DNA of 61,307 nt, the filler included, from Kipferlia bialata (lineage: Eukaryota), in the NCBI GenBank assembly GCA_003568945.1. It is 3 parts of 3 records of this genome, joined end to end, with 100 filler letters (N's around TTAATTAATTAA, not from the genome) between each part and the next. Parts side by side here need not be neighbours in the genome. Positions count along the whole stretch, not along the records: positions 20,476 to 40,841 come from BDIP01000380.1; 2 more parts are not named here. One strand, written 5' to 3'. The translations under genes were made by a program, and so were the position numbers. The notes beneath the pieces were generated by a model. It made no database searches. It had not been told where the DNA came from and was given only the letters and a program-made list of their open reading frames with translations. Below are positions 28 to 51,600 of this stretch, piece after piece; within the stretch, counting starts at the first letter, position 1, and the number at the start of each line of letters is the position of its first letter.

Positions 28-77
<50 letters not shown>

Positions 78-214
78 GTAGATAGGTGTCCTAACCGCTA
101 GCTCCTAGCAGCCCCTGGCTCTGCCCCCGTGCTTCACACCATGCTATAGATGTATACTATATACACTATATATACACTCTGCACACGAATGCCTTCACAG
201 AGTCTAACTCCTAG

Positions 215-4706: not shown

Positions 4707-4856
4707 GACACCTATATATATTGATTTCGAGGGCTAGTCCTCCCAGGCCAAGCACATCCACTCTCCTAATCTACTCTCCTAATATCTCAAGCTTGCATTA
4801 GGTATATATACTTAACAGTACTTGAAGTATTAGAGTTCTCTATTCACTTGGTATCC

Positions 4857-6257: not shown

Positions 6258-6300
<43 letters not shown>

Positions 6301-9300: not shown

Positions 9301-9532
9301 CAGCCTGTGTATATATATTGTATGTAAGTAGGGCTTACGTTAGTCAGTATATCACACCTTGGGCTTTGGTGCAGTAATATATACACTGCATATATTTGTA
9401 TTAATTATACACAGTATGCAAGTGTACCTTTGGCTTAGGCTTAGGCCTGGCCAGGTCACGTGGCATGTATCTCTTGTCTACTCTGCCATCACCCGTCATG
9501 TGCAACCCCTCACGACCCCTGCGCAGTGACAT
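4857..9532 (-). CDS. Multi-exon hypothetical protein containing an Hsp70 C-terminal (lid/SBD-alpha)-like segment followed by a Pro/Ser-rich low-complexity region
   Basis: ATG at 9532 (MSLRRGREGLHMTGDGRVDKRYMPRD...). Exons at about 8458-8506, 8162-8236, 8031-8101 and 7721-7773 give VRVRHQAKTELDLLLYGLRSRIQTPGSTIPEAQRKAAMHRVYNAIWWLEGHQRESAETYDQKRHEIEAMM, matching the Hsp70 pattern AKNxLESYxxxxR...WLDxNQxAxxEEFxxKxxELE. Last exon ends AWEDWHF* at 4857. Confidence 0.6.
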
Positions 9533-10171
9533 AGCCCTCTCTCTCTCTCTCTTCCCCCTTCTGACACTCAAGCCCTTCTACCTCTGTCTCTATGTGGGTG
9601 TGTGTCTTAGAGTCTCTCTATAGTGTCGGCTAATGCACAGGGCGAGCAGAGAGGCGTATCATCACTCAGCCACAGTACTGCGAGGCTTGTCTCCCGTGTC
9701 ACATTGTCACTACTAATGGTTGGAGAGAGAGAAGCACTCTACACCTATTCAGCAAAACGAGTACATTACACCCTTTTTCCATTGACTCTGCTACTGTCGT
9801 TTGAACCTCTCACTTGGGAAAGTGAAGGATAATGGACCCAACTCAGTCATTTACTCTTAGTATACTGTAATACTGATAGTACTAAGGGGTCAGCAGTCTA
9901 TAATGGAAGAAGTCTTCATTCAGCTTGTCTAAGTCTTTACAGGTGTAAAGGCAGAATAACGAGATGAATGCGTGTGGGGTGATACTTATGTCCTAGATCC
10001 ATACAAAAACAGAGCAATTGTGCTATTGCTGGGAAGTGTACCAGCCTAGGAGCATCACTACTAGTGATGCTAAATTGCTCACTGCTACCGAAAGTCGGAG
10101 AATCTCAGATTTGATCGGCAGAAGTTTTGGATGTTGGCTCTCTCTCTCTCTCTCCTCTTTTGTCCCAAGCT

Positions 10172-14500: not shown

Positions 14501-17500
14501 CCCACATGAGGCCGGCACTCTGCAGCCAGGAGGTGTGTAGTTGCCATTTGCCATCACAGTTCTGTCTCTGCTTACGCTACTCATACCCTCGTGATCCTGA
14601 CGGCTGACAGCAGATATCCACTGAGACCCTCCGGCGTCAGGTGGACTCTCTGCTAGCATCGGCAGCCATGCCCCGCAGTGGAGTGGCTCTGGTGGCTAAG
14701 AAGGTGTTTGTCTGTCTCCGTGCTCACGACCATCCATATAGGCATCATATATATATATATATATATAGGCATCATGGATACATATCGTTACCCCTCTCCC
14801 CCACCCTCTATTGCCAACCCCAGCTGGTGGATACCCTGACCCAGGACCCCTCCGAGGCCGAGTGTCTTGTGACCGACCCCACCCAGCTCAGAGACCGGGT
14901 GGCCCAGGAGCTCACCAAGCTGAAGGCCACTGCGTCGTATGCAAGGCTGATCCCCCTGGGCCTTGACCTCTCTGCATGTCGGTCTGCATATGGTGCATGT
15001 CGGTCGGTGCCAGCTCCTGCACTGCCACCCTCCTCCCATCCACCTCGTGCTGGTGGTGCACCGTCTACACCGTGTGTCCCAACCACTGGACATGAGACTG
15101 ACACGGATGCTGATACTGATACGGATGCTGATGCTGGTACTGATAAGAGTGGCGGTAGCACACAGCCTTCTTGGGCTGACCCCGCTACCTGTGCCGACAC
15201 TGCTGCCAATACCTGCCAACCATCAAACCAACCATCAAACCAAGCGTCTAGAGCTGCACATGCTGGACATGCTGATGGGACACGGGGGACAGGGGTAGGG
15301 GAGGTCACAGAACTGCCGTCCCACCAGGCCGACCCCAAGGACAGACCTCTCTCTCTGGCGGATACTGCGGACCAGGTACCTTTTATGGGTGTATCTACCA
15401 GATATATATATGGATACAGACTTTCGTCTATTAGAGGGACCTGATAATGGTTGTTGTGTGGTTAACGGCTCTGTTGTGTATCAATCAGCGTCCCTCAACC
15501 CAGAGCCAAACCACACACGCACCAGTGTATAGGCCCCCCTCTCCCTCAATTGACCCTCAGTGTATCAGTATCGCCTCAGGTGTCCCAGGGACGTCTGCTC
15601 GTCTGCTGTCTGGGGTCACCCAGAACCCTGCCCCCGACAGACCCCGCCCCTCTGCACCTACTTCCTCTTCCACCTCCAGGTCCCCTCCCTCTGTATATAT
15701 ATGCTATGTTATATTGAATGCGACTGATTCTAGGCCTACGGAGTCGGACCGGGTGATTGTGCATGTGTCTGCCGCGTCGTGCTATAACTGTGGCGAGACG
15801 GGCCACCCCTCGTCGCAGTGCCCCCACCCCATACTGTGCAAGAGGTGCGGGGGGGNNNCACCCCTCGTCGCAGTGCCCCCACCCCATACTGTGCAAGAGG
15901 TGCGGGGGGGCAGCCCACATCCAGTATGAGTGCACGCAGCGGAGGGGGGGGAGGGGGGCCGAGTCTAGCTGTGGAATCAGCTCCGTGTCTGCATCTGATG
16001 GGTCTGCTGTGTCTGGCCAGGCCCCACCTGTGTCTGCAGGATCAGTATCAGTATCACAGGCAGGGCAGGCAGTGGAGGCAGTGGAGGCTGTCGGCGGCAC
16101 ACACACACACGTACCTGCCTACCTGTCTCTCATCCCGACAGAGGGCTCGCTGTCAGACCTAGCGGGTGTCGGCAAGAGTAGTAAGAGGAGACCCCGTAAA
16201 CACAAAGAGACGAAGGTCCAGACACCCACCCGCCGTTTGGGGGTCAAGGGTGGGGGGCATGCACAGACGAGGGAGACAGGTAGTGTCCATCGCACTGAGC
16301 TACCTATGTCTAGTGTTGATGTCTCTGTATACAGGTCAGTTCTGCCCACCAGAGGCACTCTCACAGACCTGGCCGACGTGTGTGGACATGGGAGGAGAGG
16401 ACAGGGGAGACGGCCCACAAAGCTGTCCCAGCCAAACCCACCTCGGCAGAGGGCAGTAGCAGCCCCCCTTGCCAGTCTGACCAGTCTGACTAGTCTCGTC
16501 ACGGAGAGACCCTCCCGCACCCACCTCCTGGGGCATCCCCACCTGGGGCACTCCGATGGGTGTGATGGCCCATCCTGTCAGCACAGTCTGTATGGACACA
16601 CAGACAGGGGACACACAGACAGTGGACACACAGACAGGGGACACACAGACAGTGGACACACGGACAGGGGACACATGGACAGGGGACACACAGACAGTGG
16701 ATACACAGACAGGGGACACACAGACAGTGGACACACGGACAGTGGACACACAGACAGTGGACACACAGACAGTGGACACACGGACAGGGGACACACAGAC
16801 AGTGGATACACAGACAGGGTCAGAGCACCCGGCCCCCCTAGCAGTCCGTGCTCACAGGCCGACCCCCAGGACGCACATGCCTGGCACGGTGTGTTTGGAA
16901 GTTGCTCTGACAGCACAAGTGAGTCTGGCACGGATGGAGGGTTCGACTGCTGTTGTGATCAGTGCAAGGTGCCAGGGTCAGAGTCAGTGTCAACTGGGTC
17001 AGTGGGACCGGGGCCCGATACTGATGCTGATGCCGAGGGTGTGCACACTGATACTGACACTGATACTGAGGTGCAGGTGCAGGTGCAGGTTCAGCCCGAG
17101 GAGACAGACCTGCACCGTGTGTATACACACGCTCTGGAGGTAGTCGCAAAGGGCATGGCCCTTAGGGAGGCAGCCCAGCACATACCTGGCACAAAAGTGT
17201 CCCTGTGCGTGTACAGTGTGGCTGATATGCTGCGGTGGCAGACACAGCCAGGGTGTCTGGCAGAGCCACCCGTCAGGCTGGTGTCGGAGGAGCACAAGAG
17301 AATGCTCATGAGGTGCGGTGTCTCAAGGGTCTCCTGTCACAAGGGGGGCCACCCCCACCCTCACCCAAAGAAGCAGGGCTCCAATGCCCCTGCTGCTACT
17401 GTGCAGGAGAGGCCACCTCAGGAAACGCCTCGCACACATGCACCTTCCATGCCCACATCTGATGCGACTGGGCATGGCCCTGCGTCCACTGGTGATGATG

Positions 17501-19000
17501 GTGATGATGCGACCCACTCTCCCACCCTGGGCACACGGCACAGGTCGCACTCATCTGCAGTATCAGTATCATCAGCACCGTCGGCAGGAATGGCCCCCGC
17601 AGAGCCAGGCCGAGCTGAGGTGGGTACTACGTCCCAATGACTACCTAATCAAGTATATGTTATAGTATTATGCTATCTCCCATTTCCTATAAGGCCTGTG
17701 TGTCGATAGCCGTCTTCCACCCCTACCCATCAGTCACTACCCATCAGTCACTACCCATCAGTCACTACCCGTCTACCACCCTCACCCTCATTACTTATTA
17801 TGACAGATGGCAGCTGGGACCACTGCCACTCGTGTGTTTCTGACAGGTCCCTGGCCTGAGAAGGCCGGTGCGAGGCAGACTGAGAGGGCCTGTACTGCTA
17901 GTGATACTGCCACCCAGAGGAGGGCCGGTCATGGACAGGCAGCTCGCGGTCTTCAAACCCCTGTAGGGAGACCGCATTATACCGATACTGATACTGATCT
18001 CACCGGCCAGACCAGGTCGCCCGAGGCCGACTCAGGCCCCTCCGGCTCATCAGATGACGGTCACGCTGATGCCTATACTCATGCCTATACTCATTCTGAT
18101 TGGCACATGGGGCAGAGTGAGGGGTCATGTATGTCTGGGGGAGACACTGACAGCCACAGCCAGAACACTAGCCCTGACACTAGCCCGGAGACCATCCTTC
18201 GGGTGGTACCAGCATCATCACTGGTCAGAAGTGTGTGGAGCCCAAGCCTTGGCGGGAGTCAGACCCTCCGTCACCGGCCTGACGCCCCTACTGATACTGA
18301 CACTGACCCTGCATCCACAGCGCCACCTGACCAGTGCCAGTACCAGAGGCATGACATATATATACATGATCCAGCGGCAGAGGCAGGTGTCGTGTCCAGA
18401 CACGGTGTCAGCCCTGCACTGTCTGTCAGTGTATGTGGCCATGCTCCATCCGATGTGTGGGCTGACACACCCCATCGTGCAGCAGTCTCCGGCAGGGAGG
18501 GGCTCCCTGTGAGTGCTGTTACTGTCAGTGGTGGCGGGTGGAAGAGAGTGATGGGAAGGCCCCCCCTACCGACCAATGCTAAGGCTAGGGCCAGGCCCCA
18601 GGGTACCTTGCCTAGAGAGAGGGCGACTCACGCTGTATGCCGGTCTCGCACCCATACGGCAGGGCGATGCTCCAAGTGCCACCAGCCTGGGCACACGAGG
18701 GTGTCCTGTCCCTACCCTAAGGGGGCTAGGATGAGTGGGGCTCAGCGGCGGAAACTCACAAGGGAGCAGAGTGTATGCTATAGCTGCGGCAAGGTGGGGC
18801 ACCTGTCCCCGAGCTGTCCGGACGTGAGGTGCCACAACTGTGGCAGGTTGGGGCACATGGAGACAGGGTGCCCAGAGAGACCCCGCACCCACAACCCGAG
18901 CCTTGGCAGGGATCGGGCGTGCTTCCACTGCTGTGAGATCGGACACAAGTCGCACCAGTGCCCATATGAGAGAAAGGCTCTCCGGGACAGGGGGATCTAA
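11596..19000 (+). CDS. Non-canonical poly(A)/poly(U) polymerase (TUTase/Trf4/Cid1-like nucleotidyltransferase) with an N-terminal Zn-finger-like motif and multiple C-terminal CCHC zinc knuckles
   Basis: CPCG...H...C at the N-terminus. Pol-beta motif LYGGLGTVFASPSSDMDIAV (11863-11922), third Asp in THVDIV (~12390) and helix QLFLNYATVLPVLPQVKTVLKTLA. CX2CX4HX4C knuckles at about 15779-15935 (2-3 copies), 18668, 18776, 18830 and 18920. Ends ALRDRGI* at 19000. The true 5' end may include small upstream exons. Confidence 0.7.
16594..16818 (+). repeat. Coding 15-bp tandem repeat, 15 copies, encoding G[H/Y][T/M]D[S/R]
   Basis: GGACACACAGACAG(T/G) units in frame in ORF 15757-17640. Confidence 0.95.
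17723..17770. repeat. Intronic 14-bp tandem repeat (CTACCCATCAGTCA) x3.4
   Basis: Directly visible. Confidence 0.9.
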
Positions 19001-20375: not shown

Positions 20376-20475
20376 NNNNNNNNNNNNNNNNNNNNNNNNN
20401 NNNNNNNNNNNNNNNNNNNTTAATTAATTAANNNNNNNNNNNNNNNNNNNNNNNNNNNNNNNNNNNNNNNNNNNN
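20376..20475. other. Artificial scaffold-concatenation linker
   Basis: 44 N + TTAATTAATTAA (stops in all six frames) + 44 N. Confidence 0.95.
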
Positions 20476-28607: not shown

Positions 28608-28946
28608 GCCCACTGTCTTGCACCCTGGAGGAACACTTGAGTGGTGAATGTTGCCAAGATAGACAATGTGGCAGGGATGACCGTATGCATTATATTATGG
28701 AGAGACTACACTACTACTTACTCACACTACCTTCCACACCTATTGTCTGAAGACTCAAACAGACTTCAACAACGTCAATAGAATACTGTCCTCTCTCTAT
28801 TCGGCCATTATAGATAACACATAAAGAAAAACCACACGCTCAGACCGATAAATCGAGAAACAGCGTCAATATATCCACTGCTTGCTATCGCTACTTGGTT
28901 ACCACTGAATGCATCAGTGTCACTGTCAGTATCATACAGATACTGA

Positions 28947-31900
28947 TCAGCGCCTCCTGCCCTTGTGCTCGTGTAGACACTGCTCACAGACCTTGACCCT
29001 GGGGTGAGGGCAGAGTAGTATCATTGAATACATACATATATATATATATGTGAATATACACACAATGCTACTTACTGTACACTGACCTTGTGTACCCCAG
29101 GTCTGGCAGGTCCACCACATGGCTGCAACACTTGGAGCACAGCACCCTCCCACAGGCACGGCAGTGGTGGCGTCTACAGTGAGTAAGTACGTGACAAGCA
29201 AGGGAGTAGACAATTGACCAACCTGTTTAGGAACTTGCCAAATGCCACACCGCACTCTGGACACACTAGCATGTTGGCATTGATCTCCCACTGGGGGCGG
29301 AGGCCCACCTAGGTGTTAGAACATACATGCATACACTAATACATATTGGAGTGTGGTATACAGTATAGTACAGGAAGGGTATGGTACCTGCTCCCTTGTG
29401 ACCCCCTTCCCCCTCCCGCCCATGCCCTGCAGAGTGGCAGTGTCTCTGTCTAGGAGAGAGTCAACCCTGACAGTCAGAGAGAGAATGATTCCACTATATA
29501 CTATATACCCTACACAATCAGTATATACATATACAACTATACCTCCCCATGACGTCGTCCATGGCACTGGTGATGCCCTAAGCACATACATAACCACTAT
29601 ATATACATATATACTCTATATACACTACACTACTGTATGTACCTCCCCATGACGTCGTCCATGGCACTGGTGATGCCCCTCAGATAGGGTGCAGGGGTGA
29701 AGGGTACAGGGGATGCACTGAGTGGGGAGGCAGGGGTGTCTGGGACCACAGGCTCTCTTAGTAACTGACATGCAGAGGCACCCCCAGAGACAGCGGAGAG
29801 GTCGAGGACTGACACAAACCTACAGGTTAGGAGGGGTAGATGGAGACGGAGAGAGAGAGAGACAGCGGAGTGGTCCAGGACAGAGACGAACCTGGGGTAA
29901 ACAGAGTAAAGACAGTCATGGAACGAAGTATATATATGATATAGAGAAGAAGCGGAGGGAGACCAAGTGGAAGGGAGAAAGAGAGCAGGACAGGGTATGG
30001 CTATGTACCTAGCGATGTCTGGTGGGAACAGGGACGGGACGGGGTAGAGCTGATGGCCAACCTGGGGGTGAGGGTGCATATATATAGAGCGCAGAAAACA
30101 GTCCTTTGCATATATATACACTCATTTACATCAACAATAATACCTTCACCAGCCTCTCACACCCAGCTGCATAGAGCAGGACTAGCTTGACAAGGGCAGG
30201 GCCTGTGATGGCACGGGAGTCAGCTGGAGTCAGTGAGAGATATATATATATATATGGACTAGTGTACAGTATATACTATGTATACCTTCCATCTCGTCCT
30301 CACTGCACTCTGCCCCTTCGTTGCCCTCTCCCTCTCCCTCGGTCACACCCACTACCCCAGCCACGCATATGGCAGCCAGGTATGCCACGGGTGGGACACC
30401 AGCCCCGTCTGTGGCATCGGGGTCGGCACCTGCAGCCTAGGGTTAGAGTGAGAGAGAGAGAAAGAGGGAGAGAGAGAGAGAGAGAGAGAGCTGAAGCATC
30501 GGGGTCGGCACTGGCAGCCCAGGGTGAGAGAGAGAGAGAGAGAGAGGGGGGGAATGCAATAGTACTCTTAGTAAGATAGAGAGAGACGTACCAGCAGCGC
30601 TGCAAACACAGTGGGACTGCCTGTTAGGGCTGCCACGTGCAGAGGGGTGAGTCCAAACTCATTGGAGGCACCGACGGCACCGGTGATGGCTGAGCCTGGG
30701 GGGGTGAGGGAGGGGAAAGAAGGGGTTGAGCGAAGGGGGACTCGCTACAAATATCTATAGTAATCATACTATTGTATATGTCTATACCTAGTCTGAGCAA
30801 GCTGAGCAGCCCCCTGACTGCCTCCTTGTCCTCTGGCACAGCATCACATATATATACATAGTGTAGTATATATACGTGTATGTCTATACCTAGTCTCAAC
30901 AGACTCAGTAACCCCCTGACTGCCTCCTTGTCCTCTGGCACAGCATCACATATATACATATACATAGTAGTATNNNNNNNNNNNNNNNNNNNNNNNNNNN
31001 NNNNNNNNNNNNNNNNNNNNNNNNNNNNNNNNNNNNNGTCTCAACAGACTTAAGAGTCCTCTCACTGCCTCCTTGTCCTCTGGCACAGCATCGCCCAGGG
31101 CACCGTGGGTCTTGGTCTTGCACTTGGTCTGGGGGTGAGACACCAAGGTATATACAGCTAGATCTGATATATATATATGAAATCAGGTCGCGTTGCTTGG
31201 TCTGGGGGTCAGGCACATATGTATATGTATATATATGAAGTGACAGGATAGTGTTTAGAATTGTGGGTCTTGGTCTGGCACTTGGTCTAGAGGTGAGTCA
31301 GGGAGTATTACACACATAGCAGTTATAGATACACCCGATATTAGAAGTGAGTGACAGTGTATAGAATTGTGGGTCTTGGTCTTGGTCTTGCACTTGGTCT
31401 GGGGGTCAGCCATTAAGGAATATGATACAGGTATATATACACACACACATACTATATATGGATACACCCATACCTCCATTGTGACGCTGTCCACGTGTCT
31501 CAGCAGTGCAATCAGCCACACCCTGGCGGCATCAAGCAGTCTGAAGGGGTAAGGAGGGAGAGAGAAAGAGGAGAAGAAATACATAGTATCCAGCAGTCTG
31601 AAAGGGGTCAGAAGGGGGAGAGAGAGTGAGGGAAAATGAACATGAATACAATCAATATAGACTTCATTAGTATATATTCATATACATCCAGCAGTCTAGG
31701 GGTCAGAGGGGAGAAGTGGAGTGGGTGTAGCAGAGATAAGAATATATATATATACCTTCCAGCCTCCTTGACCGCATCCTCAATCTCAAATGCATCACTG
31801 TCCTCATACTATCTATGACACATATACACTAATTAGTGTATATATATATATATATATGAATATGCATATATACCTCCCGGCCTCCTTGACCGCGTCTTCA

Positions 31901-32695
31901 ATCTCAAATGCATCACTGTCCTCATACTATCTATAACACATATATACTAGTTAGTGTATATATATATATATATACATACCTCCCGGCCTCCTTAACCGCA
32001 TCCTCAATCTCAAATGCATCGCTGTCCTCATCGCTGAAGGTGTCATAGATGTCAAGGTCATCGGCCGCTAGGCCAAACCTGGGTGTGGGTGTGAATTATT
32101 TATTAATTATTACAATGCTATAGACATATTCAGCACTCTATCTATAGTGTTATATATATATACAGTGTATACACTAACAGTGGCACATACCTCAGCAGCA
32201 GGGGCAGCAGGGACAGCTCAAACACAGAGTCAACGGCACAGCGCCTGGGGTCAGGGGGACACACATACATACACATACATACATAAGCATCAGCGTATGG
32301 CTCTGGGTATATGTACCTTGGAATGAGTGCGCGCCTCTCCTCCGGTGTCTCCCCCCACCCCCCTGCCTTAGTCACACACTGTGTGTGACAGGGGGTGGGG
32401 CACCCACAGGACTGCGTGGCACGCTCACACTCCCTGGCGTCCTGGGGTTCGAGAGATCTACATACATACACATATACATGAGTATACATACTGTACCCAC
32501 CTGATCCCCGACCCAGTTGACCAATGGCAGTATGAGGGATGCCACTGGGAAGGGAATGGCAGTGTCGGAGTCGTGTCTGGGGGTGGGGAGAGACATAACA
32601 AAGAGAGAGAGATGACATAGGAGAGCATGCACTACAAATCATCCCCACCCACCTTCCCTCTCCCTCCCCGTGCCATGCTATGTCGTCCACACGGG

Positions 32696-32738
<43 letters not shown>

Positions 32739-33878
32739 CACCAGATGCAAGGTACACCCACCTACTATCCCCGTTTCCATGTCCTGCTATGTCGTCCACA
32801 CTGTATCTGCTGTAGCTGGAGGGCACACAGCGCAGCACCTGGGGTGTCAGCACAAGAGTTTACATATATGTCTAGATTGTGAAGGTGTCGACACACTAGT
32901 GTGCATAGTAACTAGTAACTACATACGTATATTCCTGTGTGTGTGTGTCGCTGGGGGTGCAAAACAGTGTGTATATATACATACCTGCGTGTGTGTGTCC
33001 CTAGTGCATAACAGTATCCAAGTGTGCAATGTATAGAATACAGTGTATATATACATAAGTATACTTGCGTATGTGTGTCCCTGGTGCATGGCAGGTAGTG
33101 GTAGGGCACATTCCCGTCTGAGTCTCTGGCCGATGTGCCCTCTCCCAGTGTCCTCCTCCTGGCCACACTGGCACCGGCCTCCATCCCTACCTCACCCCCG
33201 GAGAAGGTGTCAGCTAGGAGTTAGGGGTACATATTCACATATATACTTACATACATAAGTATTAGAGATAGAGACACAGTACCTAGTAGCGATATGACGT
33301 CTCGGGGTGTGATGACAGCACTTGAGGCTGGGTATACTACACATACAATATATATATATATATACCAGGGGGGAGTGATATATAGTACCTAGTAGGGATA
33401 TGACGTCTGGGGGTGTGATGACAGCACTTGATGCTGAGGTGGGTGAGAAGGAGAGGTCACTGGCCCTCTCCTTGTCCCTCTCTGCCATCTCAGCCCTGAG
33501 GGCCTCAGCAACAGACATCTAGGGGTGATAAGGGGTGTAGGGAGAGAGAGAGAGGAAGAGAGAGTTTGTGTGTGAGAAAGATATACTCACACACACCCCC
33601 TACCTGAGGGGAGAGTGAAAGTGACCCCCTCCTGGACTGTCTGGGGGATGGGGAGTGGAGGAGGTTGGACAGGGAGTCTGAGACACCCTGCATCTGTCGG
33701 TCCTGGGTATGAGTATACACAAAGAATATATATATTATATACAGAATAGTACTTCATGGGGCATCGTACCAGGCTACCCTGTGCTGAGTCTGTCCCCTCT
33801 CTCTCCTTGCCCTGTGCCTTGTCAGATGGTCTGGATTGGCCATCTCCATAGGACTGGGCCTGGGTTAGGTATGTGTAT

Positions 33879-33917
<39 letters not shown>

Positions 33918-34149
33918 TAGAGGGTCATGCTTGAATGCGTATGATACCTCTGCCGACCCACAGTCCAGTGCGAGGACATGGATCAAGGGCACACGGACCT
34001 GGGGGGTCAGGGGACACGGAGGGAAGGAGAGAGAGAGAGGGAGAGAGTGTGTTACCCACCCTAGGCTCTGGGTGGCATATGATGGACACAAAGGCAGCTG
34101 GGAGGCAGTGGAAGGGGCGGATGACACTGAGGGTAAGAGGGCGCCATAT

Positions 34150-34189
<40 letters not shown>

Positions 34190-34288
34190 TCATAGGTATA
34201 CCTGTTGGGGCTGTCGAAGAGTGCGTTGTGGGTATCGTCACCAATCTCCACCTCAGACCCACACAGCCACCTGGATGTTAAGGGTGTA

Positions 34289-34326
<38 letters not shown>

Positions 34327-34935
34327 CTGATGGACCTCTGGGACTGTACCTCCTTGCACCGGGTATAGAGCTCACTGGAGGTAAGGAGGGGGTCGTGACA
34401 AGGTGTGACAAGGTGTGTATGGACATGTACCTGTAGTATCTGCACCCAGCCAGTATGCCGCACTCCTCTGCGAATGTCCTCCTCCTCAGCAGATCATCGG
34501 TCAGCTTGGTCTCGCCTAAAGGTCAGTGATGCGAATGAACAACAATACAAGTATATAATGGTACATACGTATATAGTGGATCCTCAGTCAGCTTGGTCTC
34601 GCCTAGGGGGTCAGATATACAGCGTAGACGAATAGGGTGCTATAGAACTAGGTCTGGGGGGTCCGGGAGGAGACGGGTGTATAGGTATAGAGTGAGATGT
34701 TAGGTATTCCCCTACCTAGCAGGGCCAGCGTCCATACATGTACATGTAGGGTGTCATCTACTTTGTAGAATAACATGTATCATAATGTATCATAAAACAA
34801 CAGACTCCCTGTACCTAGGAGGGCCAGGGTCCTCCTGTCAAACCCTGATGCAGCGGCATATGCACAGGCACGACGCAGCTGACCTCTGGCATACTTGAGA
34901 ACCTTTGGTCAGAGAGAGAAACGGAAAGAGAGAGG

Positions 34936-34968
<33 letters not shown>

Positions 34969-37900
34969 CCGTACCAGTGCCTCCAGCTCTGCAAAGGCCA
35001 AGGAGGTGCCCGACCCCTGGGACAGACCGGTCACCTGGGGTTAGGATGCATATAAATACCATTAGAGATGCAACTTATACTACTATTTACTATTCATGGA
35101 ACACCCACCTTTGCCAGCGTGTCATACTCGACGTGTCTGAACGAGTCCCTCAGGGTTGGGAAGTATGTGGTGCTGATGGTCTCCATCAACATACGGACAA
35201 CGTCAGACAGGCCGTTTCTAGGGGTTAGAGAGAGGTAGATAGATAGATATATATATAGAGAGAGAGAGAGAGAGTATACCTTGCTGCCAGGATAGCCAGG
35301 TGTGGTAGAAGGGTGGTGCGGCGCATGCCCAGGACCTGTTGGTCGGGGTCACTCTGCATGACCTAGGGGTGAGGGAGGGAGTATGTCTACCCACTATTAC
35401 AATAACTATGCATATATACATTTAGGTAGTGACATACCTTTGGCTTGTTCCTCTGTCTCCTGACGGCAGAGTATGTAGCGATGGAGAGAGAGGAGGCAAG
35501 CTTGGAGGCAAGGGCGGCTGTCTCCTCATTGGGCTGTGCATCACCCTCTCCCTCTCCCTCTCCCTCTCCCTCTGCCTCCTCCTCCTCCTCTTCCTCTGTG
35601 ATAGGCTGTGCCTGTACGACATGCATGACAGTACTGGATGGTACACAGCTGAGACCAGAGGCGTAGGAGCTGTACCCGCTGAAGGAGGCCCAGCCATCCT
35701 GGGGGTAAGGGAGAGGGAGAGAGAGAGTGTGTGAGAGTCATACTAAATATATACATATACCATATGTACAATTAGTATACCTCTAGTGCCTGTTCCGACA
35801 GACTGTGCTTGTCCACGCACTCTGCCAGTACCCTCAGGTGGTAGCTGTCCAGGATGCCAGAGAGAGAGGGACCGTCCATCTGACAGTCAGAGACGAAGTC
35901 TATACACTGACCTAACTAAACACAATGATTAGATGTTAGAGAAGTACTATCGCTAGTATATCTGGAAATTCACACTAGTGGTACCTGCAGGTGTCGGAGT
36001 GGTCCCTGTATCTCCTGCAGGAGGGGTATCTTGGCAAAGACACCCAGCTGGGCAGAGAGGTGGCCTGCAGCAGCCAGCATCTCGACAGACCTGGCAGTCT
36101 CTGAGGGTGAGGGGGAGAGTAGGACAGGGGTGGTATGTATAGAGAGTAAGTATAGGGAGGATATGTATACATATGTGTATATATAGTCACCTGCTATGGG
36201 CCTTCTGGCCTGGCACAGGTAGGACAGAGGGGTGTTACCGGTGGCATCAATCCAGCCAACTATCACCCTGGGGTTAGGTGGAGAGGAAAAGAGTAGCAGT
36301 AGGCCTATAGGAAAGTGTACCTGACGTCTGCTGTGCCGCAGCTGTTGATCATTCTGACCAGGGTCTATTAATGTATCTATCTCTCTATGTATCTCTCTAT
36401 ATATACGTGTATATCCATACCTGACGTCTGCTGTGCCGCAGCTGTTGATCATCCTGACCAGGGGCTCAAGACACACATCACTGTAGGGGTGAGAGAGGGA
36501 TGTATCAGTGTGTATATAGATACTGATACTGGTACTAGGGTGATTGTATGGCAGGCCTACTAGTGATAGTGTACCTAGGGGGCCTGGTCTCCTCTCCCTT
36601 GGCCTGTCTGTCGATGCAGGCACACCTGGGGTGGGGGGAGAGAGATACCTTGCATAGTCCACAAGTGTCTGCTATACATACATATACATACATATATACA
36701 CATACTAGTATATGTATATATACAAATACGCATACCTAGCATAGTCCACCAGGGGCACTGAAGAGATATGTGCTCGGGTGTTGTCATACATCAGCACACA
36801 TATATATACATCCCCCTCTCTCTCTCTATATATATATATATATGTACATGCATACATAAATGCATACCTAGCATAGTCCACCAGGGGCACTGATGAGATA
36901 TGTGCTCGGGTGTTGTCATACATCAGCACATATATATATACATCCCCCCCCCTCTCTCTCTCTATATATATATATATATACATGCATACCTAGCATAGTC
37001 CACCAGGGGCACCCAGGGGAGGGGCAGCGAGGTGGGCTGCCAGGCAGGCATCACGGTGTCACCCCTGAGGCCTAGGATGGGGGTGGAGTCTCCAGATATA
37101 CTGCACACATACAGCAAACATCACAATGGTACACCACTCCATATGGATGTTACCTAGCAATGCTGGGAACTCTGCGATGTTGCCTGCACAGCTGGAGCCA
37201 TCGGGGGTGATCCTGAGGGGTGAGAGAGACGACATATACAACAGGTCTGGGGGTGATGTAAAGTCTGTACTATTGACTATACCTGGGAGGGAGTGAGAGG
37301 GATGAGAGCTGGCTGGCTGCAATGTGCAAGGGTGTCCTGTGCAGCTTGTCAGTGAGGGCAAGGACAGCGGTCACAGGGGCAGCAAGGGTGCCTGGGGGTG
37401 GTAAACACACATATAGTATACAGTATAAAGAATATATAACATTCACATTATAGATAGGTTTAATATAGTGACAGGGGCAGCCAGGGTGCCTGGGGGTGGT
37501 ATATGCAATATACATACTGATTCAACAATGCTCGATAGACCATGATTCTCTATACTAATGATCATTGAATCAGTATATCCCTACCTGTGAACTGGCCAGA
37601 GATGAGGGCATCACAGACCTGGAGGTCAGAGAAGACAGTACAGACACACATATATATAGAGAATTGGCACAACACTCGAGGCAACTAATACTGATTGGTG
37701 TGAGAGTCACCGTACCTCAGTCAGTAGCTCCACACTGCTAGAGTAGACAGCACAGTGCAGCACTGACCTGGGGTAAGGGAGAGATAATGATCATGGCAAC
37801 AAAACCCACAGTACGGACACTACTATTATACAAAGAGAGATACATAGGCCTCACCCGAAGTACTCTGACACAGCCAGCACATTGTCAAAGGGCAGCAGCA

Positions 37901-39358
37901 GCTTGGTCAATGAAGGGTCAGGGGCAAGGAGGGCAGAGAGGAGCAGAGGGGTCAGGCCATACCTGGGTGAGTAGATAGTATATGAATACAGAGAGAGAGA
38001 GAGAGAGCTGGGTGAGGGGGAAGTAATGAGTAGATACGCTATATATATATATATATATATACAGAGCGAGCGAGAGAGGGATACTATGAATCTGTACGTA
38101 CTGGTCTGGGGGGCAGAAGAACTGGATGGGAGCCGAGTGGTCCCCAAAGGCACATGAGATGGCCACATTAGAGTGGGTGGAGGGGCCCTCCTCCTTCTCC
38201 TTCCCCTTGCCACTCTCTCCCTCTCCCTCCGCCCCTTCCTCTACCTCTGCGTCTCCGGGTAGCCTTATCAGCTCACTCTCATCAGGGGCAGGCTGGTTCT
38301 CAGGAGAGGGGTGGTCACTCACTGCCACCAGGTCATTGAGGGTCTCAAAGACAGTGAGCAGGAAGGCAAGGATCAGCTCCAGAGAGGGAACAGAGCCTAG
38401 GGTAAGGGAATAGCGAATCTCACGGTAGCCACCTGAATAGGATTATATAGTGTACCTAATGCGAAGTAGTGCATGGGAGACCGCCCGTATATGTCCTGTC
38501 CAAATGCGTGCTGGATGTTGTCGAAGTACCCAGCATCAAGGTCCTCACCCAGACAGGTCAGCAGGACCTGGAAGGGTAAGGGGTCGTCAGAGAGACTATA
38601 TCTACTCACTTGGATATATATGGTTACATATGGTTGTCAGGGTACCTGCAGACAGCGTAGGTATGCCTCTGGTGTCTCGTTCTGCCCTGTCTCATAGTCC
38701 AGAGACTGGTCTGCAGACTGCACCTGGGATGGTGAGTGGAGGGGGAATATAGTGCGGTATATGGAATATCAAATATCGAAGAGTGAGTGGATGGGTACTA
38801 CCAATTGGGTTGCAATAGGAGAGTGCCATGGAGAGAGTGTGGTGCTATCTGCACGTACCAGCAGCTCTGAGTCCCCGACAGCCAACAGGTGCAGCACAGT
38901 GTGGCCCCTGGGGTTAAGAACACATCAAGAGAGTGGAAATATGGTGTGTTCACTGCAATGTAATATCTGATATTTATCCTTGGATGGTTGTGTGTACTCC
39001 AGCCCTCACCTCTGTGTGCTCTCAGAGGCCACTGCACAGAGGTCTCTCTGACACATCTCTCTGGGGTCAGACATATAGGGAGAGAGAGAGAGGGGGGGGG
39101 GGAGAGAGAGTATATGCCCACCTAAGGAGTACGTGGTCTGCCTTGAGTGCCGCAAAGTGGGCCGGGGTGAAGCCATGCTCGTCCTGGGGTGAGGGAGGAG
39201 AGAGAGGTATGGAATGTAAACAGGAGTATAGTATTGAGAGAAGCATATACACTGACACCAACATGGTACCTGAGGTGTGATGAGTCCCCCTGCCTCAAAA
39301 AGAGCATGGACACAGTCGAGATCACCCTGGGGGTCAGTATCGGAAAGAGAGAAGAAGA

Positions 39359-39410
<52 letters not shown>

Positions 39411-40073
39411 CCACCCACCCTGAGTGCAGCCAGATGGAGTGGACTGTGTCCGGCAGCTGTGAGCTTGTTGGCGTCTGCCCCGGTCATCAACAGGGCATCT
39501 GGGGGGTGAGAGAGTGAGGAGAGGGGCAATAGCAGAGAGTGTGGAGGAACTACTGGGAGTATGGAGAGAGTCACTGTGGGTAAGTAAGAGTAACCAGGGG
39601 TGGCTGAACTCAGGAGGGGGGGCAAGCAGTACAAAGAGAGGGCAGGAGGAATACTCCATACGACAAAGAGATAGGAGAGACACAGTCACATGAGTACCTA
39701 TGAGGCCTGGCAAGGCAGCGTCTGCGGCATAGTGCAAGGGGGTCTCTCCATAGGCGTTCACAGCATCCACCACATCCGCCCTAGCGATGGAGCTGGGTGC
39801 ATAGGTGGGCTCTCCCCCCTCAGTTCCTCCAGTCTCGTATTCAACAGGTGGGGGGACACCTGTGGCGATGATGCAGTTGACGATCATGCTCACGAGGTCC
39901 TCCCTCTCCTGCAGCACCACTGCATGTAAGATGGTGCTGCCCTCGGGGTCCCTCAGCTGCAGGGGGTCCTCGGCGTCGGCTATGATGCCCCTCAGCATCT
40001 CGTCCCTGTGCTGGCCCAGCGCAGCCTCGATCAGAGGCCACTGCGGGGAGGCATCCCCGCTCCAGGCTGCCAT
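28947..40073 (-). CDS. Large ankyrin-repeat protein with C-terminal FYVE domain (Rabankyrin/ANKFY1-like architecture), more than 30 exons
   Basis: Ankyrin motifs GSTILHAVV, GETPLHYAA, GHSPLHLAA, GFTPAHFAA, GRSPMHYFA, HRTPLHIAA and GLTPLHVAA. Last three exons (29310-28947) splice to WEINANMLVCPECGVAFGKFLNRRHHCRACGRVLCSKCCSH...RVKVCEQC...RRR*. Confidence 0.85.
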
Positions 40074-40250
40074 CGGTCACAAGCAGTATGTGAGAGAAGT
40101 GGGGTGCCCTGTGTGAGGGGTAGGGCTCTCTGAGTAGATCAGTGGTGTCAGGTGAGAGTCTCATTTCTTAGCCCCTTATAGAAATCCAGGCAAAAACGGC
40201 CATTGATAGAGCTGTGTGTACTCTGTTCTATCCGCCGTTCATACCACGCT

Positions 40251-40841: not shown

Positions 40842-40941
40842 NNNNNNNNNNNNNNNNNNNNNNNNNNNNNNNNNNNNNNNNNNNNTTAATTAATTAANNN
40901 NNNNNNNNNNNNNNNNNNNNNNNNNNNNNNNNNNNNNNNNN
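40842..40941. other. Artificial scaffold-concatenation linker
   Basis: 44 N + TTAATTAATTAA + 44 N. Confidence 0.95.
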
Positions 40942-43306: not shown

Positions 43307-43667
43307 TCATCCGAACATCATTGAGAGCCCACTGCCACTCCCCTCAGGCTTGTCTCCCTCTGACCTCTCCTCCTGTGTACTGGCCTGTCTCAGCAGACGC
43401 ACCCACCGTCTGCGCTCGGCCTCGTCCTGATGGGGTCAGTATACATTCATACAATGATATATGTATTATATAGTGTCGATCTACACATGAAAGGCGTTGA
43501 GCGTTGATATCATACCTCTGCCTCAAAGACATAGACCCTGGTCTCCCCGGGTATGGCTATGGTGAATATGTGCGGGTGGGATCGGTTGGACTGCACAGGG
43601 GTCACCACTGCCCCACTTGCAAGAGAGATGGTGCCTCTGGGGACGCTGTCACCCTCCTGGGTATCAG

Positions 43668-43707
<40 letters not shown>

Positions 43708-44562
43708 CCCTCCTGGGTATCAGAAGAGAGTAATAAAGGAAAAGTGAGAGAACAAGAGAGAGAGAGAGAGAGATTGTGTGAGATGAAGTCTAACCTTGCG
43801 GTAGTAGAACAGGTTCTGGTACTCTAGGACACAGAACCGAATGCGCCATGATTTGATGCGGCCTCCCTGCTTCCTCAGCCAGCCACGCTTCTGGGGTCAG
43901 GATAGATAGAAGCGATACAAGAGATAGAATAGTCTTATAGAGTATAAAATTTACACCAGAGACAGTGCCCTCACCTCTACTAGTGCTGGGGGAGTGACGC
44001 TGTGTGTGGTACTAGTTGTGAGTGCCCCCTCCTGTCCATCGCCTGTGTCTGTGCCATAAGAGTGTGCCTGTGCAAAGGACCCAGAGAGAGAGGGGCTGGG
44101 GTGCATGGTTCCCACAGGGGCCACGGTCTCAGTGACGTCTGCCTCTGGGCCCTCCACAGAGTACTCATAGTCTGCCTCCGGGTCTGGCTTGGGACCGGTC
44201 TTCCTCACATCCAGGCCCCTCACCTTGACACTCCTGGCCGTGAACTGCACTGTCTCCTCCTCACACGTGGCAGACTGGTGGGTGCCAGTCCACTCCAGAG
44301 GGCTAGCAGGGGCCTCAGTAACAGCACCCCCAAGCACAGTGGAGGGAAGGGTCACATAGTCACCAACTACAAGAGACGCAGGGTTGTGGCGCTTACGCTC
44401 TGCTGCAGCTACCTCCAACTGTATCCACCACTCACTCCCTATCTCATCATCACGACAAGCAGGCGAGGGGAACGTCGTGTACCGAGGGGGGAGCAGGGCT
44501 GGGAACATACTGCAAAAGAGAGGTCCCTCTGACTCAGAGGGCTCTGAGCGTTTTTGTGTCAT
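43307..44562 (-). CDS. PH-domain protein
   Basis: Spliced KRGWLRKQGGRIKSWRIRFCVLEYQNLFYYRK|EGDSVPRGTISL...HIFTIAIPG...VFEAE|DEAERRRWVRLL, a canonical PH domain, after a low-complexity first exon. Confidence 0.85.
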
Positions 44563-44679: not shown

Positions 44680-47600
44680 ATGCAGCCAGTGACCGAGGGG
44701 TCTCTGGAGGACCTGTGTCGGGTCTGTCCGGATGAGGACCCCCTCTCTGTGCTGCACCTGGCAGAGCACCTGTGCTCCAACAGACGCTATGCCTCAGCGG
44801 TCTCCCTGGCCTTTTCTATCCTCACTCTCTTCCCTGTGCCCGAGAGCCAGGCGGAGAGCGCCGCCTCCCCCTGGTGCCGCACTATCCACTGTGCTCTGCT
44901 CTCTGCCTCCCAGGGGGGTAGGGTGTGGACACCAGAGGCACAGCAGGCACTCATGTACATCCACGCCAACATCAACGTGATCCCAGTGGGCCTGGCCCGG
45001 CTAGTGTTGCGTGTGCACACTGCGCGGCTGTCTGTGCTCCCTGTCTACCCAGATGCCATGGCTAGAGGCCTGGCTGTGAGGCTGAGGGAGGTGGGGCACA
45101 GCGTGGATGCAGAGGTGGTGCACTTTGTGCATCAGTGGATAGAGATGCCCCTCATCAAGAGGAAGATGATAGCCGGGAGCGGGGACCGGATGCGGTGGCT
45201 GAGTCTGAGTGCCGGACTGCCCCTCTGTCTGAGAGCAGTGGCACAGGCCAGGCTGGCTGCCATCATACCCGTGCCTATACCCCCTCCCACAGCAGTCACA
45301 TCCCACCCAGTGCCTCCTGCTGCTGCCCTGGCATACTGCTCTGCAGCGCTGGAGGCAGCCTTCCTGCGTCTCTCCCCCTCTCTCCTCTCCCACGTACGTA
45401 TGCTGGACTCCCTCTCCTCCCGACCTGCCTGTCTGTCTCTGATACCCGAGATAGTGACCCCCCTTGCCATGTCAGGAGCACTCCTCAGTGGGCATGTCGG
45501 TGAGTGCCCTGCCCTGCTGTCTGCCTGGGGCATGGACACATTCCCCCTCTCCCTCCTCTCATCCGTGCCCCCATACACCCTGAGGGCACCCACAGACGTG
45601 CTCAAGATGTGCCGGGATAACGTCGCAGTCTGCCCGTCTGCTGCTCTGGCCATAGCCACTGTCGTGGTGGCAGGGGCCAAGGTACGCGATTACGTAGATA
45701 TGCCTCCTCTCTCCCATTGCTACTCTCTCTCTATGTGCCTATGACACCCTCCTCCTCTCTCTTGACCCCAGCCCCCCCAGCACCTGTCCAGACAGTGGTC
45801 CAGCACAGTGCTCAAGAGTGCCAGGCTCATGGCCCTGGGTACGCATACAGACACGTCCATTTCCATATCACTACTATGAATATACACAACTAGTATACTC
45901 ATTACACAACATGTATCCTTGCACTTCCTTAACACCTGATGTGTCTGTTTCTTGTGCATATATATGTATAGGCTCTGTACCCACCCCAGGCCGTGCCTAC
46001 CCTGCCCCCCTCTCCCTCAAGATAGCCATTGGGACTATCGGACTGGGAAGCGTCAGGTATTATGTTTGTGGATGTACCCCTTCAATACCCTGCTCCCTAT
46101 CTCTACTGTCACCCCCCCCCCCCTTACCTCAGTGTGCCTGATACCATGGGCACTGCCGAGGGTGTACGGTCAGTGCGCGAGATGCTCCCGGCCGACCCCT
46201 GCTCCCCCTACCTCCAGGCTGCACTCCGAGTGGCCAAGGGAGAGGCCCTGACAGAGGGTGGGGGCGAGGGGGCGGCAGATGAGAATGCAGATGTTCCCAA
46301 CAGCGCCCCCATCCCCCTCGAGAAACTGTACTCTGGTCCATTTGGTGCCTCCTGTCTCGCCCTCGGTGCCCTGTCTATGCTGCATGTCAGCGAGTACAGC
46401 AAGGCAGCGGGGCTGGTGCAGAGGTGTCTCGCGGCACCCCCCACCCCACACTGCCCTGCCCCCAACAGTGGGGACCTGGAGTATGCCTTATGCTGCTGTG
46501 AGGCACTGACTAACAGGTATCTCTCTCTCTCACACACACTATCTCTGTGAGGCACTGACTAACAGGAATAGGGGGGACATGTCTCTCTCTCTCTATATGA
46601 CTCGATGTACTATCCTCCTCTGACCCCAGACTGGACAATGCCAGACAGGCCATGACCAGGTGTCTGGCAGCAGACCCCAAGCATGGAGGTACTCCCACTC
46701 ACTACACATACACACACCTACACACACACACTCTCTCTCTCTCTCTCTCCCCCCCCCCCTCTCACCCCCAGGAGGCCTCCGGGCCAAGCAGCTGCTGGAG
46801 GATGAGGACACGGCCCAGAACGGTGCCCATGAGTTGAAGCTGGGGGCAGTGGCAGCCCTCTCCGTGGCAGGGTACGGGGTTAAGGGTGACGTCAACGGGC
46901 CTGACCTGTCAGTGGTGGGTGACATCTGCAGACTGGTGTCTAAGGGGGAGGGCCATAAGGGCACACCACATGTCCCCAGGTCACAGAGGGCTAATAGACC
47001 AGGGGCTGGGGGAGGCGGGCGGGGAGAGAACGACTACCCCGCGTACCAGGGGGAGAACCAGGCCCTGGACAGCTCTCTGGTCAGTGGGGGCTCCTGGGGT
47101 GACTCCTCCCTAGTGTCCAGGGTGGACAGTGACAGGGTGGGTAGCAGGGCCAGACACCAGGCATCAGGGGCACCCAGGGGGCCCCCTCCTATTGGGAGGC
47201 CAGGGAGGCCCACACGCAGGTATGTTGTTCATGCGTCCGTATGTATCAGATACTCTATATATACCAATACTAACACCCCAGGTACGATGACGCCTCCCCT
47301 GATATGAGAGGGTCAGCCCTCGTGGACCCCCAGGGCCGGAGGGGGACCCCAGGGATACCCCTACCCACCCCCTCTGGCTCCATACGCACAGGTCAGCTGG
47401 ACAGTCAGCTGGACGATGTGGCTAGGCGGCGACGGGAGAGAGAGAGACAGGCGGAGCTGGCCACCTCTCCCTCTGAGTTTGGCGCCTCCTCCATAGCAGC
47501 AGGGGTCTCCAACATGGGGTCCAGCTTTGGGGGTATGTCCATGTCGTTCTCCGAGCTTGGTCCCTCTCCTGCCGCAGGGGGCAGGGCCAACGGGGTCACC

Positions 47601-48041: not shown

Positions 48042-48614
48042 ACTCTGTTGACATTGTATTATTGATATTTGTAGTTGACATATAGTGAGACTATGTTGAT
48101 AGCAAGGGTGTGGCGTTGTGGCTATACAGTACCAAGCCTGAAGGGTGGGGGGGGGGGGAACAATAGAAACACACAGACGGAAATTCCATTTCTATTGTGC
48201 CNNNNNNNNNNNNNNNNNNNNNNNNNNNNNNNNNNNNNNNNNNNNNNNNNNNNNNNNNNNNNNNNNNNNNNNNNNNNNNNNNNNNNNNNNNNNNNNNNNN
48301 NNNNNNNNNNNNNNNNNNNNNNNNNNNNNNNNNNNNNNNNNNNNNNNNNNNNNNNNNNNNNNNNNNNNNNNNNNNNNNNNNNNNNNNNNNNNNNNNNNNN
48401 NNNNNNNNNNNNNNNNNNNNNNNNNNNNNNNNNNNNNNNNNNNNNNNNNNNNNNNNNNNNNNNNNNNNNNNNNNNNNNNNNNNNNNNNNNNNNNNNNNNN
48501 NNNNNNNNNNNNNNNNNNNNNNNNNNNNNNNNNNNNNNNNNNNNNNNNNNNNNNNNNNATCTTTTATCTCTCTATTTTCCCCCCCCCCCCCCCGTGTACC
48601 TCTCTCACCCCCAG

Positions 48615-51600
48615 AACACTTTTGTGGGCCAGTCTGTGGCTGCCTCTGGTGACTGGATGGTTCTAGGGACCAGAGACAACATGGCATACGTATACAAGAG
48701 GGCCCCTGACGGCACCTGGGGCTACGCCGACTCTCTCTCCTCTGGGGGTGACGGTGGCACCACCTTTGGGTGGAACGTGGCCATGTCAGACGACTGGATG
48801 GCAGTGACATCCTCCCAGGCCACGGTGGATTCGTATAGCAACGCAGGCAAGGTGTACCTCTACCAGCTCAGTGCTGATGGCACCTACTGGGCGTACCAGC
48901 GCTCTGTAACAATGCCCACACTCGAGGCCAGCGTCTGGTTCGGTGCCAGCCTCTCCCTCAGCGGGGGGCACCTGCTAGTGTCCACCAACAACACCGCCCG
49001 GATCTTCTACGCCCATGTGTCAGGGTCTGTGGCTATAGAGCTGGCAGACGTGTCTGCCTATGACGGGGAGACCTTCACCGGCAGTAGGGTAGCAGTGAGT
49101 GCTTCGGTGGACGGGGCATGGGCAGCAGTCCTCTGCAGTAACCACGTCTTCCTCTACGACCTGTCCGTCCCTGGGTTCGAGACTGCCCCAACCTATAGTG
49201 ACAAGCACGAGTGGGGCACAACCGCCCTGTACCTGGGTCTAGACATGCTCAGCGTCAGTGGCAAGATGATTGTGGGCTCCTCTACACAGTCTGGGTTTGA
49301 TGTCTATGTGTACAGTGGAGGTACCTGGGTGAAGAGTGGACACACTACCAATGCGTCCTGCATGATGACTGCACTGTATGGCTCCACAGCTGTGTGTGCT
49401 CACAACGGCTATGTCTCTGTGTACGTCATATTTGAGAGTGGCTATACCTCTGCGCTCAGATCCCTCACCCCCACCACCTCGGGTGACCCCCACTCCATAG
49501 CCCTCTCAGAGAGTGGTCTGTTCCTGGGTGCAGGGTATGTGGACACAGATGCGGTGAGTGACAACGGAGGGGTGTACGTGTATCACGCAGACCTCCCCTA
49601 TGTTGGACCAACCACACTCAAGATGACCCTTGATGCCACACCGACCTTGCTGCAGCCCAGCGCAGGTACCCTCCCCCTCTCACGTTGTCTATCTGTTCTG
49701 TATTTGTGGGTGTTCCCACGCGTCCTTAGTTCTACTCTGCTATGTAGTTGCTGTATATACTGCCGACCCCCCCCCCCTCTCTCACCCCAGCTGCCAACTC
49801 CAGTGTGGGCGTGTCCTCTGCGGATGGCCAGTGGCTGGTGATGGGAGGGTATGGTGTCAACTCCCTCAACGGAGCAGTCTATATGTACAGGAACACCTAT
49901 GACACCTCGACCGAGTCCTGGGTGCCCTCTCTCTACCAGACCCTCTCTCCCCCCTCCGGGGCTGTACCCTCTGGTACCACAGACCTCCGCTTCGGTGCGA
50001 GTGTCTCTGTTTCTGGGGACAGACTTGCTATCGGGACTAGTTTTGAGAAGGTTGATCTCCTTCTGTCGGTAGGAGCTGTGTACACATACACCTTTGACGG
50101 CGAGTGGTGGGTGGAGGATGCAAGGATAGTTCCTGCCTCCCCCGTCGCCGAGACCAGGTGTGGCGTCTTCGTTGCCATTCAGGTGAGGGTGGAAAGACTG
50201 CCTATCAGAGGGGGATCGTAATTGTATAGACCGGGTCATTACTCTCTCTCTCTCTCTCTGTCTGAGCTATGTCTGACCCCAGGATGACCGTGTATTCTTC
50301 AGGTGTAGCAACGGCGACATCCACATGGCCACCTGTGTCGATGGGACCTGGGGCACTCCCTCGGTCATCCTCACAGGGTGGCAGTACGCACAGGTTGGGA
50401 CTGATACATTATCATACCCTCTCCTCTGCTCCACCGTGTTTCTATCTCTTTCTCCTATGTATTTGACATATGTTTCGTCTGACCATCAGTTTGCCCTGTC
50501 TGGCGACACCTTCGCTCTGTTTGGCATCAACGACCTCCACATATACGACATGTCAGTGGCCAATTGGGAGTCCAACGCTCCGGCGTTCAGTGAGAACCAT
50601 GGGTTCTGCACTGCACTGGGCAGCACCTCCTGGGGCATTGGTGCCGTCGACATGGACTCTGGTGCAGGCAGGGTTGTGTATGGGGTGGGAGCGGGTACCG
50701 TCCGTGTATCCTACTACGATGGTAGTACCTGGGTGCAGGAGAACACGTTCTCTCTCACAGCGCAGCAGGTGGCACTCCGTGGCTCCACCATTGCACTGGG
50801 GTCAGCCAACAGCCTCGCCGTCTACAGCCACTCCCAGGTGCTGGGGTGGGTCTCTGTCAATTGGGTGGACCCAGGCACCAACGGCTCCCCCTGTGCCTCT
50901 CTCTCCGTGTCTGAGTACGGCCTGTACATAGGGGCAACGGGACTCACTTCCCCATCTGCAGCTGCAGGCGGTGTCCAGGCATACTCCTACCTCCTACCCT
51001 CCTACTCGGACTCCTCTTCTCTTCTCACAGAGCTCTCTGGGGTCCCAGCTGTCATCGCCCCCTCTCTTGTGGCCGGTGCAGCGGTAGGGTCTGAGATATC
51101 TGTAGATGGGGAATGGCTGGCGATTGGTGCCCCTACCGACTTTGAGCGTGGTCTAGTCTACATGTACAGGAGGCAGGACGACCTCTCATACGAGTACTTC
51201 GAGACCCTGTCCTCAGCCTCCTGGTCAGATGCCAACACAGGCTGGCAGGGGGGAGGGTACTTCTCCTTCGGGTACAGCGTGTCTGTGTCGGGAGACAGGT
51301 ATGATACTTAGTACCAGCTTCACTATATCCCAGTATTGTCATAATAGACTCCTTTTCCATGCCTCACCAACAGGGTGGCCATTGGAGCGCACCTGTCTGC
51401 CCCATACGGCACTGCCTATGCTGGAGCAGTGTATACATTTACCTATGATGCCACTAACGGATGGGAGACGGAGGGCCTTCTCACCGAGCCTGAACTGACG
51501 TCTGGTCTCAGGTTCGGCTCCCACGTTACACTGTCTGGGAGCACTCTAGTGGTACAGTGCGGCGAGTCAGGCACTGAGGCCTCAACTGTCTACACGATCA

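Follow-up and report, generated by a model that had tools for sequence, protein, structure and literature searches.

The window analysed here, 61,307 nt of DNA from Kipferlia bialata (a free-living protist and a metamonad), contains genes in which parts of exons recur in the neighbouring introns. Each of these copies, which we call echoes, comprises part of an exon and one border only. The site of the array discussed first is the piece at 20476-40841; N runs with a 12-nt linker at 20376-20475 and 40842-40941 join separate contigs, and therefore two further genes considered below, P and Q, may not be neighbours of the gene that carries it. That gene lies on the minus strand at 28945-40073 and has 50 exons in a hand-built model, with a frame open throughout and a product of 1618 aa containing ankyrin repeats and a C-terminal FYVE finger (Pfam). 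A search with exon 1 gave a single protein, P0001 (source name KIPB_002343 of K. bialata, 100% identical), which equals the 50-exon model apart from ten added residues at an N gap. These (residues about 1327-1336, window 30890-31128) are a false 10-residue repeat, because the annotation ran from the used exon over the gap and into an echo. Apart from the entry for this gene itself, the protein searches returned four ankyrin proteins, all of them distant, and no close paralogue, and metagenomes queried with the full-length protein and with exon 1 gave 588 and 505 pattern matches respectively, none of them confirmed and no relative among them; neither approach found a second isolate or allele. 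Elsewhere in the window, a 55-nt direct duplication about a 3-N gap at 15800-15916 is probably an assembly overlap, and long-gene sequence includes a coding 15-nt repeat in 15 copies (16593-16817, plus) and, by eye, CCHC zinc-knuckle-like motifs (about 18780-18960, plus).

The used copy of exon 41 (version A, 94 nt) spans 31035-31128 on the minus strand, as given by the offsets of a spliced contig described below; an earlier note had its start right but placed its end at 31038, and the last 3 nt in fact fall within the N gap. The donor, a 32-nt TA-rich spacer and the N gap follow at 30948-31037 (minus; bridging-contig depth, contig start at 31063 and simulation). Then come donor echo B (30890-30947, minus; in the assembly, with no contig displayed), which consists of exon nucleotides 37-94 and then GT, a 44-nt TA-rich spacer that begins with GT and is akin to the A spacer (30846-30889, minus; sequence), donor echo C, again followed by GT (30788-30845, minus; sequence and codon comparison), and exon 42 (30592-30695, minus; gene model and spliced contig). 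B and C are thus copies of the final 58 nt of exon 41 inside the following intron, and while they had been taken as contiguous, and no gap lies between them, the GT-initial spacer keeps them apart. The codon strings and echo coordinates first noticed here were reproduced exactly: DAVPEDKEAVRGLLSLLR is encoded alike by A, B and C, with 7 base differences between A and B, 7 between B and C and 10 between A and C, all silent at codon level. The initial 29 nt are the same in all three, and variable codons make up 0/9 of the first nine vs 8/10 of the last ten (Fisher P 0.0007). The first three variant codons of B are as in C and the last three as in A, and the two between them, both Leu, are found in B alone; on codon comparison, this sharing reads as a recombinant pattern.

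Two runs from one sample contain this stretch, both as contigs: DNA run X1 and a second run, X2. They give no independent support, because X1 may be the source sample and the kind of X2 is a guess; X2 was taken as transcript because its contig behaves as spliced, and neither run is recorded as RNA. The eight listed single-copy contigs of the DNA run have depths of 461-516 and no other letters, and a contig of 747 nt (31063-31809) takes in exon 40, three acceptor echoes and the greater part of exon 41. The N gap is bridged by one contig with 9 letters, at a depth of 1708 vs about 480 for single-copy sequence. In a k=31 de Bruijn simulation, the contig 31063-31809 arises only with at least one extra A-type unit in the gap; with none it would extend to 30927. 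From contig ends and depth, rather than from units read singly, the N gap hides at least one further 90-nt unit with version-A codons, and the earlier count of three encodings, which holds for A, B and C, is accordingly too low. The depth suggests 2-3 A-type units in the gap, as a rough guide in which tandem copies and copies elsewhere are indistinguishable. The short side was reported as 55 nt, 8 nt above the simulated length, an excess that would fit B having been simplified away in the contigs. Among the contigs listed, none apart from the gap-bridging joint falls at 30434-31062, so the presence of B and the B-C order rest on the assembly.

The X2 contig (2876 nt) is spliced and joins 30697 to 31038. 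Its offsets fit the lengths of exons 33-46, with exon 41 at 94 nt, and therefore the main transcript uses A once; it has no insertion and no other letters, and contains version A alone. The suggestion that several codon versions occur in mRNA thus found no support, with one spliced contig fitting A exactly, in data where rare transcript forms are invisible since contigs drop them. At exon 34 (window 33065, minus) AA precedes the GT, and in its unused echo (32985) AG does; the spliced contig picks the first donor, which is less consensus-like than that of the echo.

Such an array could be produced by an assembler placing alleles, paralogues or mixed strains end to end, and the N gap inside the array, the absence of B from the displayed contigs, the popping of small allelic bubbles in contigs and the possibility that X1 is the source sample are all compatible with this. 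Against it, contigs of 747-1191 nt with even depth and no other letters cover echoes and exons together, and contig ends at 29649, 31063 and 31809 agree with a haploid simulation. There are just two variant sites in 11.9 kb, which arise where one exon-39 echo has been aligned to its twin, the variant being at full single-copy depth, and no close paralogue appeared in the homologue searches. Where contigs span, echoes and used exons lie on single contigs at single-copy depth, and not on the separate haplotypes or paralogous loci that the earlier note had named as the alternative. We therefore find an assembly artefact hardly credible.

Echoes are not special to exon 41, as more introns of three genes carry such copies. 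The three acceptor echoes described for exon 41 are present (all minus), albeit each with a qualification: the one at 31369-31398 (sequence and echo search) has a branch site and AG with an extra in-frame 6-mer, that at 31263-31286 (echo search) has a K>Q change, and the shortest, at 31196-31201 (sequence), is only a 6-nt match, below the echo-search threshold; the first two share a contig with the used exon. Exon 39 has two donor echoes (31756-31925, minus; echo search), one with its variant at full single-copy depth, each with 4 silent and 0 amino-acid changes and both out of frame with stops, and exon 46 has an acceptor echo with 4 silent changes and 1 amino-acid change (29858-29891, minus; echo search, one contig). 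In the hand model of gene P, one exon has seven acceptor-side echoes (1255-2002, plus) with 11 silent and 2 amino-acid changes; in this gene there is also a case of a distal echo identical to the exon, with silent differences in the nearer ones. The last coding exon of gene Q has an echo beyond the stop codon (4730-4763, minus), in which 5/5 changes are non-silent, a stop included, unlike the intronic echoes, and the 12 nt between a branch-site/AG and a GT at 5437-5448 (minus) would fit an in-frame micro-exon of this gene. Further, uncounted echoes were seen in other genes at 26302, 26405 and 26470 (plus), at 46509-46558 (plus) and at about 43650-43760 (minus), with the one near 46550 lacking GT. 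Echoes accompany TA-rich regions, with 49 (TA)4+ runs in 1-9600 and 30 in 28900-40100; the long repeat-rich gene at 48559-61307 has no such run and gave no echo in a model-free scan.

To count echoes, 146 exon-intron pairs from three genes in one window were searched blind to codon position, using putative structures, modelled by hand, for gene P (plus, 215-4500) and gene Q (minus, 9499-4856); a gene near 25.6-27.1 kb, whose model lacked an open frame, was excluded from the counts. There were 52 matches in the 146 adjacent pairs vs 17 in 2414 non-adjacent exon/intron pairs, and the echoes thus exceed chance. They occur in 13/49 introns of the ankyrin gene, 7/8 of gene P and 8/15 of gene Q; 43/52 have their anchor at a splice site, with donor and acceptor sides both represented, and 38 of these 43 keep the GT or AG. 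The TA content of the individual intron was rejected as a general cause, being 0.122 with and 0.120 without an echo (P 0.99). A clear relationship of the intron side to the used intron exists in 16/42 echoes, and 11 echoes with identical exon parts have at most 11 intron bases in common. The intron side has drifted and the exon side has been kept, unlike fresh duplications.

Differences between echoes and exons number 15, 15 and 64 at codon positions 1, 2 and 3. Over the three genes 54 of 86 unique base differences are silent, a count in which echoes within one array are not independent, echoes scoring <12 are missed, and X-drop shortened C to 38 nt, so that only 3 of its 10 differences are included; it also leaves out the most decayed parts, some with several amino-acid changes (by eye, the distal half of the exon 35 echo and the second echo of Q exon 7). 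Null expectations are 25.8±3.9 (base-matched) and 29.3±4.0 (trinucleotide-matched), and as 0/20000 draws reach 54, the mutation spectrum was rejected as the cause; the other sense frames give 11/86 and 15/86 silent. Once the hand-picked exon 41 is excluded, 48/79 are silent. By gene the silent counts are 31/41 (ankyrin), 16/23 (P) and 7/22 (Q), so that gene Q has no silent bias, and pN/pS is 0.08-0.11, 0.12-0.17 and 0.56-0.76, respectively, with a pooled pS of 0.17 (two genes). Single echoes show the silent bias too, and the distance from the free end is no shorter for amino-acid changes than for silent changes (P 0.22).

The explanation requiring no extra process is that these are ordinary dead duplicates in a clonal line, in which echoes are snapshots and silent differences accrued later in the used exon. 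The order A, A, B, C is indeed polar by similarity, and gene Q is in keeping with near-neutral decay. If selection acts on the used exon alone in a clonal line, however, the silent share can be no higher than 42% (kappa 2) or 46% (kappa 5), which the 63% seen (CI 52-73%) exceeds (P 6e-5 and 1e-3), and 14 of the 19 changes assigned by parsimony to the echo side are silent; a distal echo of gene P, identical to the exon where nearer ones differ silently, is likewise at odds with it. Dead duplicates are very unlikely on this evidence, and from the bias above the clonal maximum together with the echo-side changes it follows that selection on the protein has acted as a filter on the echo sequence itself. 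The implied claim of the earlier note, that echoes are kept by selection on protein, is therefore supported; of its overall reading, protein selection stands, several codon versions in mRNA do not, and the structure is of a described kind, the mirages discussed below. The echoes are real mirage-type repeats, and the unexplained and new part is a silent bias on DNA which the main transcript discards.

Selection could reach echoes directly if they were sometimes translated, via a distal donor, a proximal acceptor or a chimeric transcript. The retention of GT or AG in 38/43 anchored echoes is in keeping with this, and at exon 41 the units, 90 and 102 nt long, keep the frame and contain no stop (our own reading of sequence, contigs and simulation), so that distal donors would yield tandem peptide repeats and translation stays alive as an explanation there. 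As a general cause it was rejected: 13/42 echoes are in frame, which is the chance level, and only 2/42 are in frame and open. Furthermore, the exon-39 echoes have 8 silent and 0 amino-acid changes while being out of frame with stops, and the spliced contig has neither an insertion nor other letters. Overall, we regard translation as quite unlikely.

The main rival to the reading that we favour invokes the same recombination with no foreign allele: through deletion or conversion across their identical 5' parts, an echo would sometimes become the working exon end, so that its amino-acid changes are purged second-hand. The common start point and the 29 identical bases of A, B and C are in line with such array turnover, turnover of the array is evident from its additional identical copies, and mirages are length-unstable (PMC3087553). 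Turnover quick enough to purge should, however, erase silent divergence too; by our own estimate a pS near 0.17 needs exchange at only about 10-100 times the mutation rate, and at such rates effective purging requires a diversity that is very high to begin with. The bias is also present in single echoes. We consider this rival unlikely, albeit with a real chance of being right.

The favoured reading, to which we give an even chance, is that echoes are the ends of other alleles that once worked, acquired when recombination occurred out of register in a population of very high diversity. In its favour are the silent bias beyond the clonal maximum, the preponderance of silent changes on the echo side, the drift of the intron side, the recombinant pattern of B and the precedent of the lancelet alignment discussed below. 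What was observed are the copies, the lack of echoes in the main spliced contig and the excess of silent differences; from these we infer the following steps. A break would be repaired by strand copying through the exon end into the intron and then joined to the other end, and such overshooting repair with end-joining would duplicate the border while leaving one complete exon. In a very diverse population alleles would pair in exons only, and therefore an echo would pair out of register with another allele's exon; the exchange would swap in the other allele's exon end and intron start, and repeated rounds would build arrays such as A, A, A, B, C, whose units all start at one point. Each version would have acquired its silent changes while a working exon elsewhere, and would have been dead too briefly for many amino-acid changes. 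The donor may have been a mate's chromosome, or a diverged homologue lost later from the same cell line; that several versions were selected at once is simplest if each was a working exon on a different chromosome. Parts of such a process are documented elsewhere: crossovers favour exons in the hypervariable fungus Schizophyllum commune (PMC4209137), where silent diversity is 0.13-0.20 (PMC4576712), a range that includes the pooled pS of 0.17 found here; fornicates are reported to lack NHEJ and Rad51A and to retain two Dmc1 copies (PMC8516963), Dmc1 tolerates mismatches (PMC8682777, PMC7809202), and in worms tandem duplications arise from end-joining of aborted SDSA (PMC8654963). Against the capture of other alleles are gene Q with its lack of bias, the uncounted diverged echo parts with several amino-acid changes, the lack of any clustering of amino-acid changes towards the free end, and the in-frame, stop-free exon-41 units, which suit translation instead; it also demands a silent diversity near the eukaryotic maximum.

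Tandem mutually exclusive exons, e.g. those of Dscam, have their own acceptor and donor in each copy. The Kipferlia echoes resemble them as tandem exon-like copies under purifying selection, but as they have one splice site only, and start or stop in mid-exon, they are unusable as cassettes, and none carries an acceptor plus a donor. In the Rogers model, introns are gained by tandem genomic duplication (PMC3443670), and as in that model the echoes represent a short tandem duplication that copies splice signals within a gene; unlike it, the copied sites are unused in the main transcript and no new intron or exon is formed, the spliced contig holding one 94-nt exon 41, while an existing intron grows. 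With regard to Schizophyllum, the setting proposed for Kipferlia is shared in its silent diversity of 0.13-0.20 and in exchange confined to conserved exons, whereas border duplications go unmentioned in the abstracts of PMC4209137 and PMC4576712, and diversity is measured there and inferred in Kipferlia.

The closest likeness is with the mirages of lancelets, tandem minisatellite units over a 5' or 3' exon-intron border with GT/AG mostly intact and normal splicing (PMC3087553), which are described in Adh3, troponin C, the globins BflGb6/BflGb9 and PGBD5, and whose near-identical units cluster (PMC3087553, PMC3902484); length polymorphism and somatic instability are further traits of this class. 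Kipferlia echoes likewise span a 5' or 3' border in tandem (43/52 anchored), most but not all keep the GT/AG (38/43), and splicing is undisturbed, at least in the main form, for which the spliced contig equals the echo-free model. They differ in being found in a protist, in their density (13/49, 7/8 and 8/15 introns) and in that, next to a conserved exon side, the intron side is in many cases unrelated. The preference for silent changes was measured in Kipferlia, whereas the main text of PMC3087553 uses the words synonymous and silent 0 times. The published alignment itself nevertheless seems to show such a bias: in supplement 4 of that paper (BflGb6; by eye, with the frame inferred), unit D3 differs from the exon at 6/6 silent sites, and the differences of D1 and D2 are silent in 5/8 and 6/8 cases. 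Codon states present in the exon of the other haplotype also recur in BflGb6 mirage units there, a sharing that common ancestry could partly explain. Our literature search found no report of such repeats in K. bialata, nor of the silent bias, although the original Adh3 papers, outside its scope, may treat codon patterns; in the main text of the species genome paper (PMC5874029), terms for duplication, heterozygosity, ploidy and meiosis occur 0 times.

DNA that is left untranslated and yet preserves amino acids calls for an explanation, and every candidate given here is testable. At a practical level, echoes mislead gene prediction, as in the false 10-aa repeat of a public protein, and the decoy sites, some nearer to consensus than the used ones, offer a natural test of splice-site choice by a reduced spliceosome (87/174 proteins, PMC6679479). 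If allele capture is true, it would also suggest a cause for the lancelet mirages, the mechanism of which is called unclear in PMC3087553. It is possible, if a little on the doubtful side, that the introns of K. bialata are a genome-wide archive of captured alleles, in which case one haploid-looking genome would record, for a free-living metamonad, a silent diversity near 0.15-0.25 together with recurrent exchange between partners that had diverged, and mirages generally would mark populations that recombine and are hyperdiverse. To our knowledge sex has never been observed in the group to which K. bialata belongs, and if allele capture is true, its echoes would be a fossil record of recombination there.
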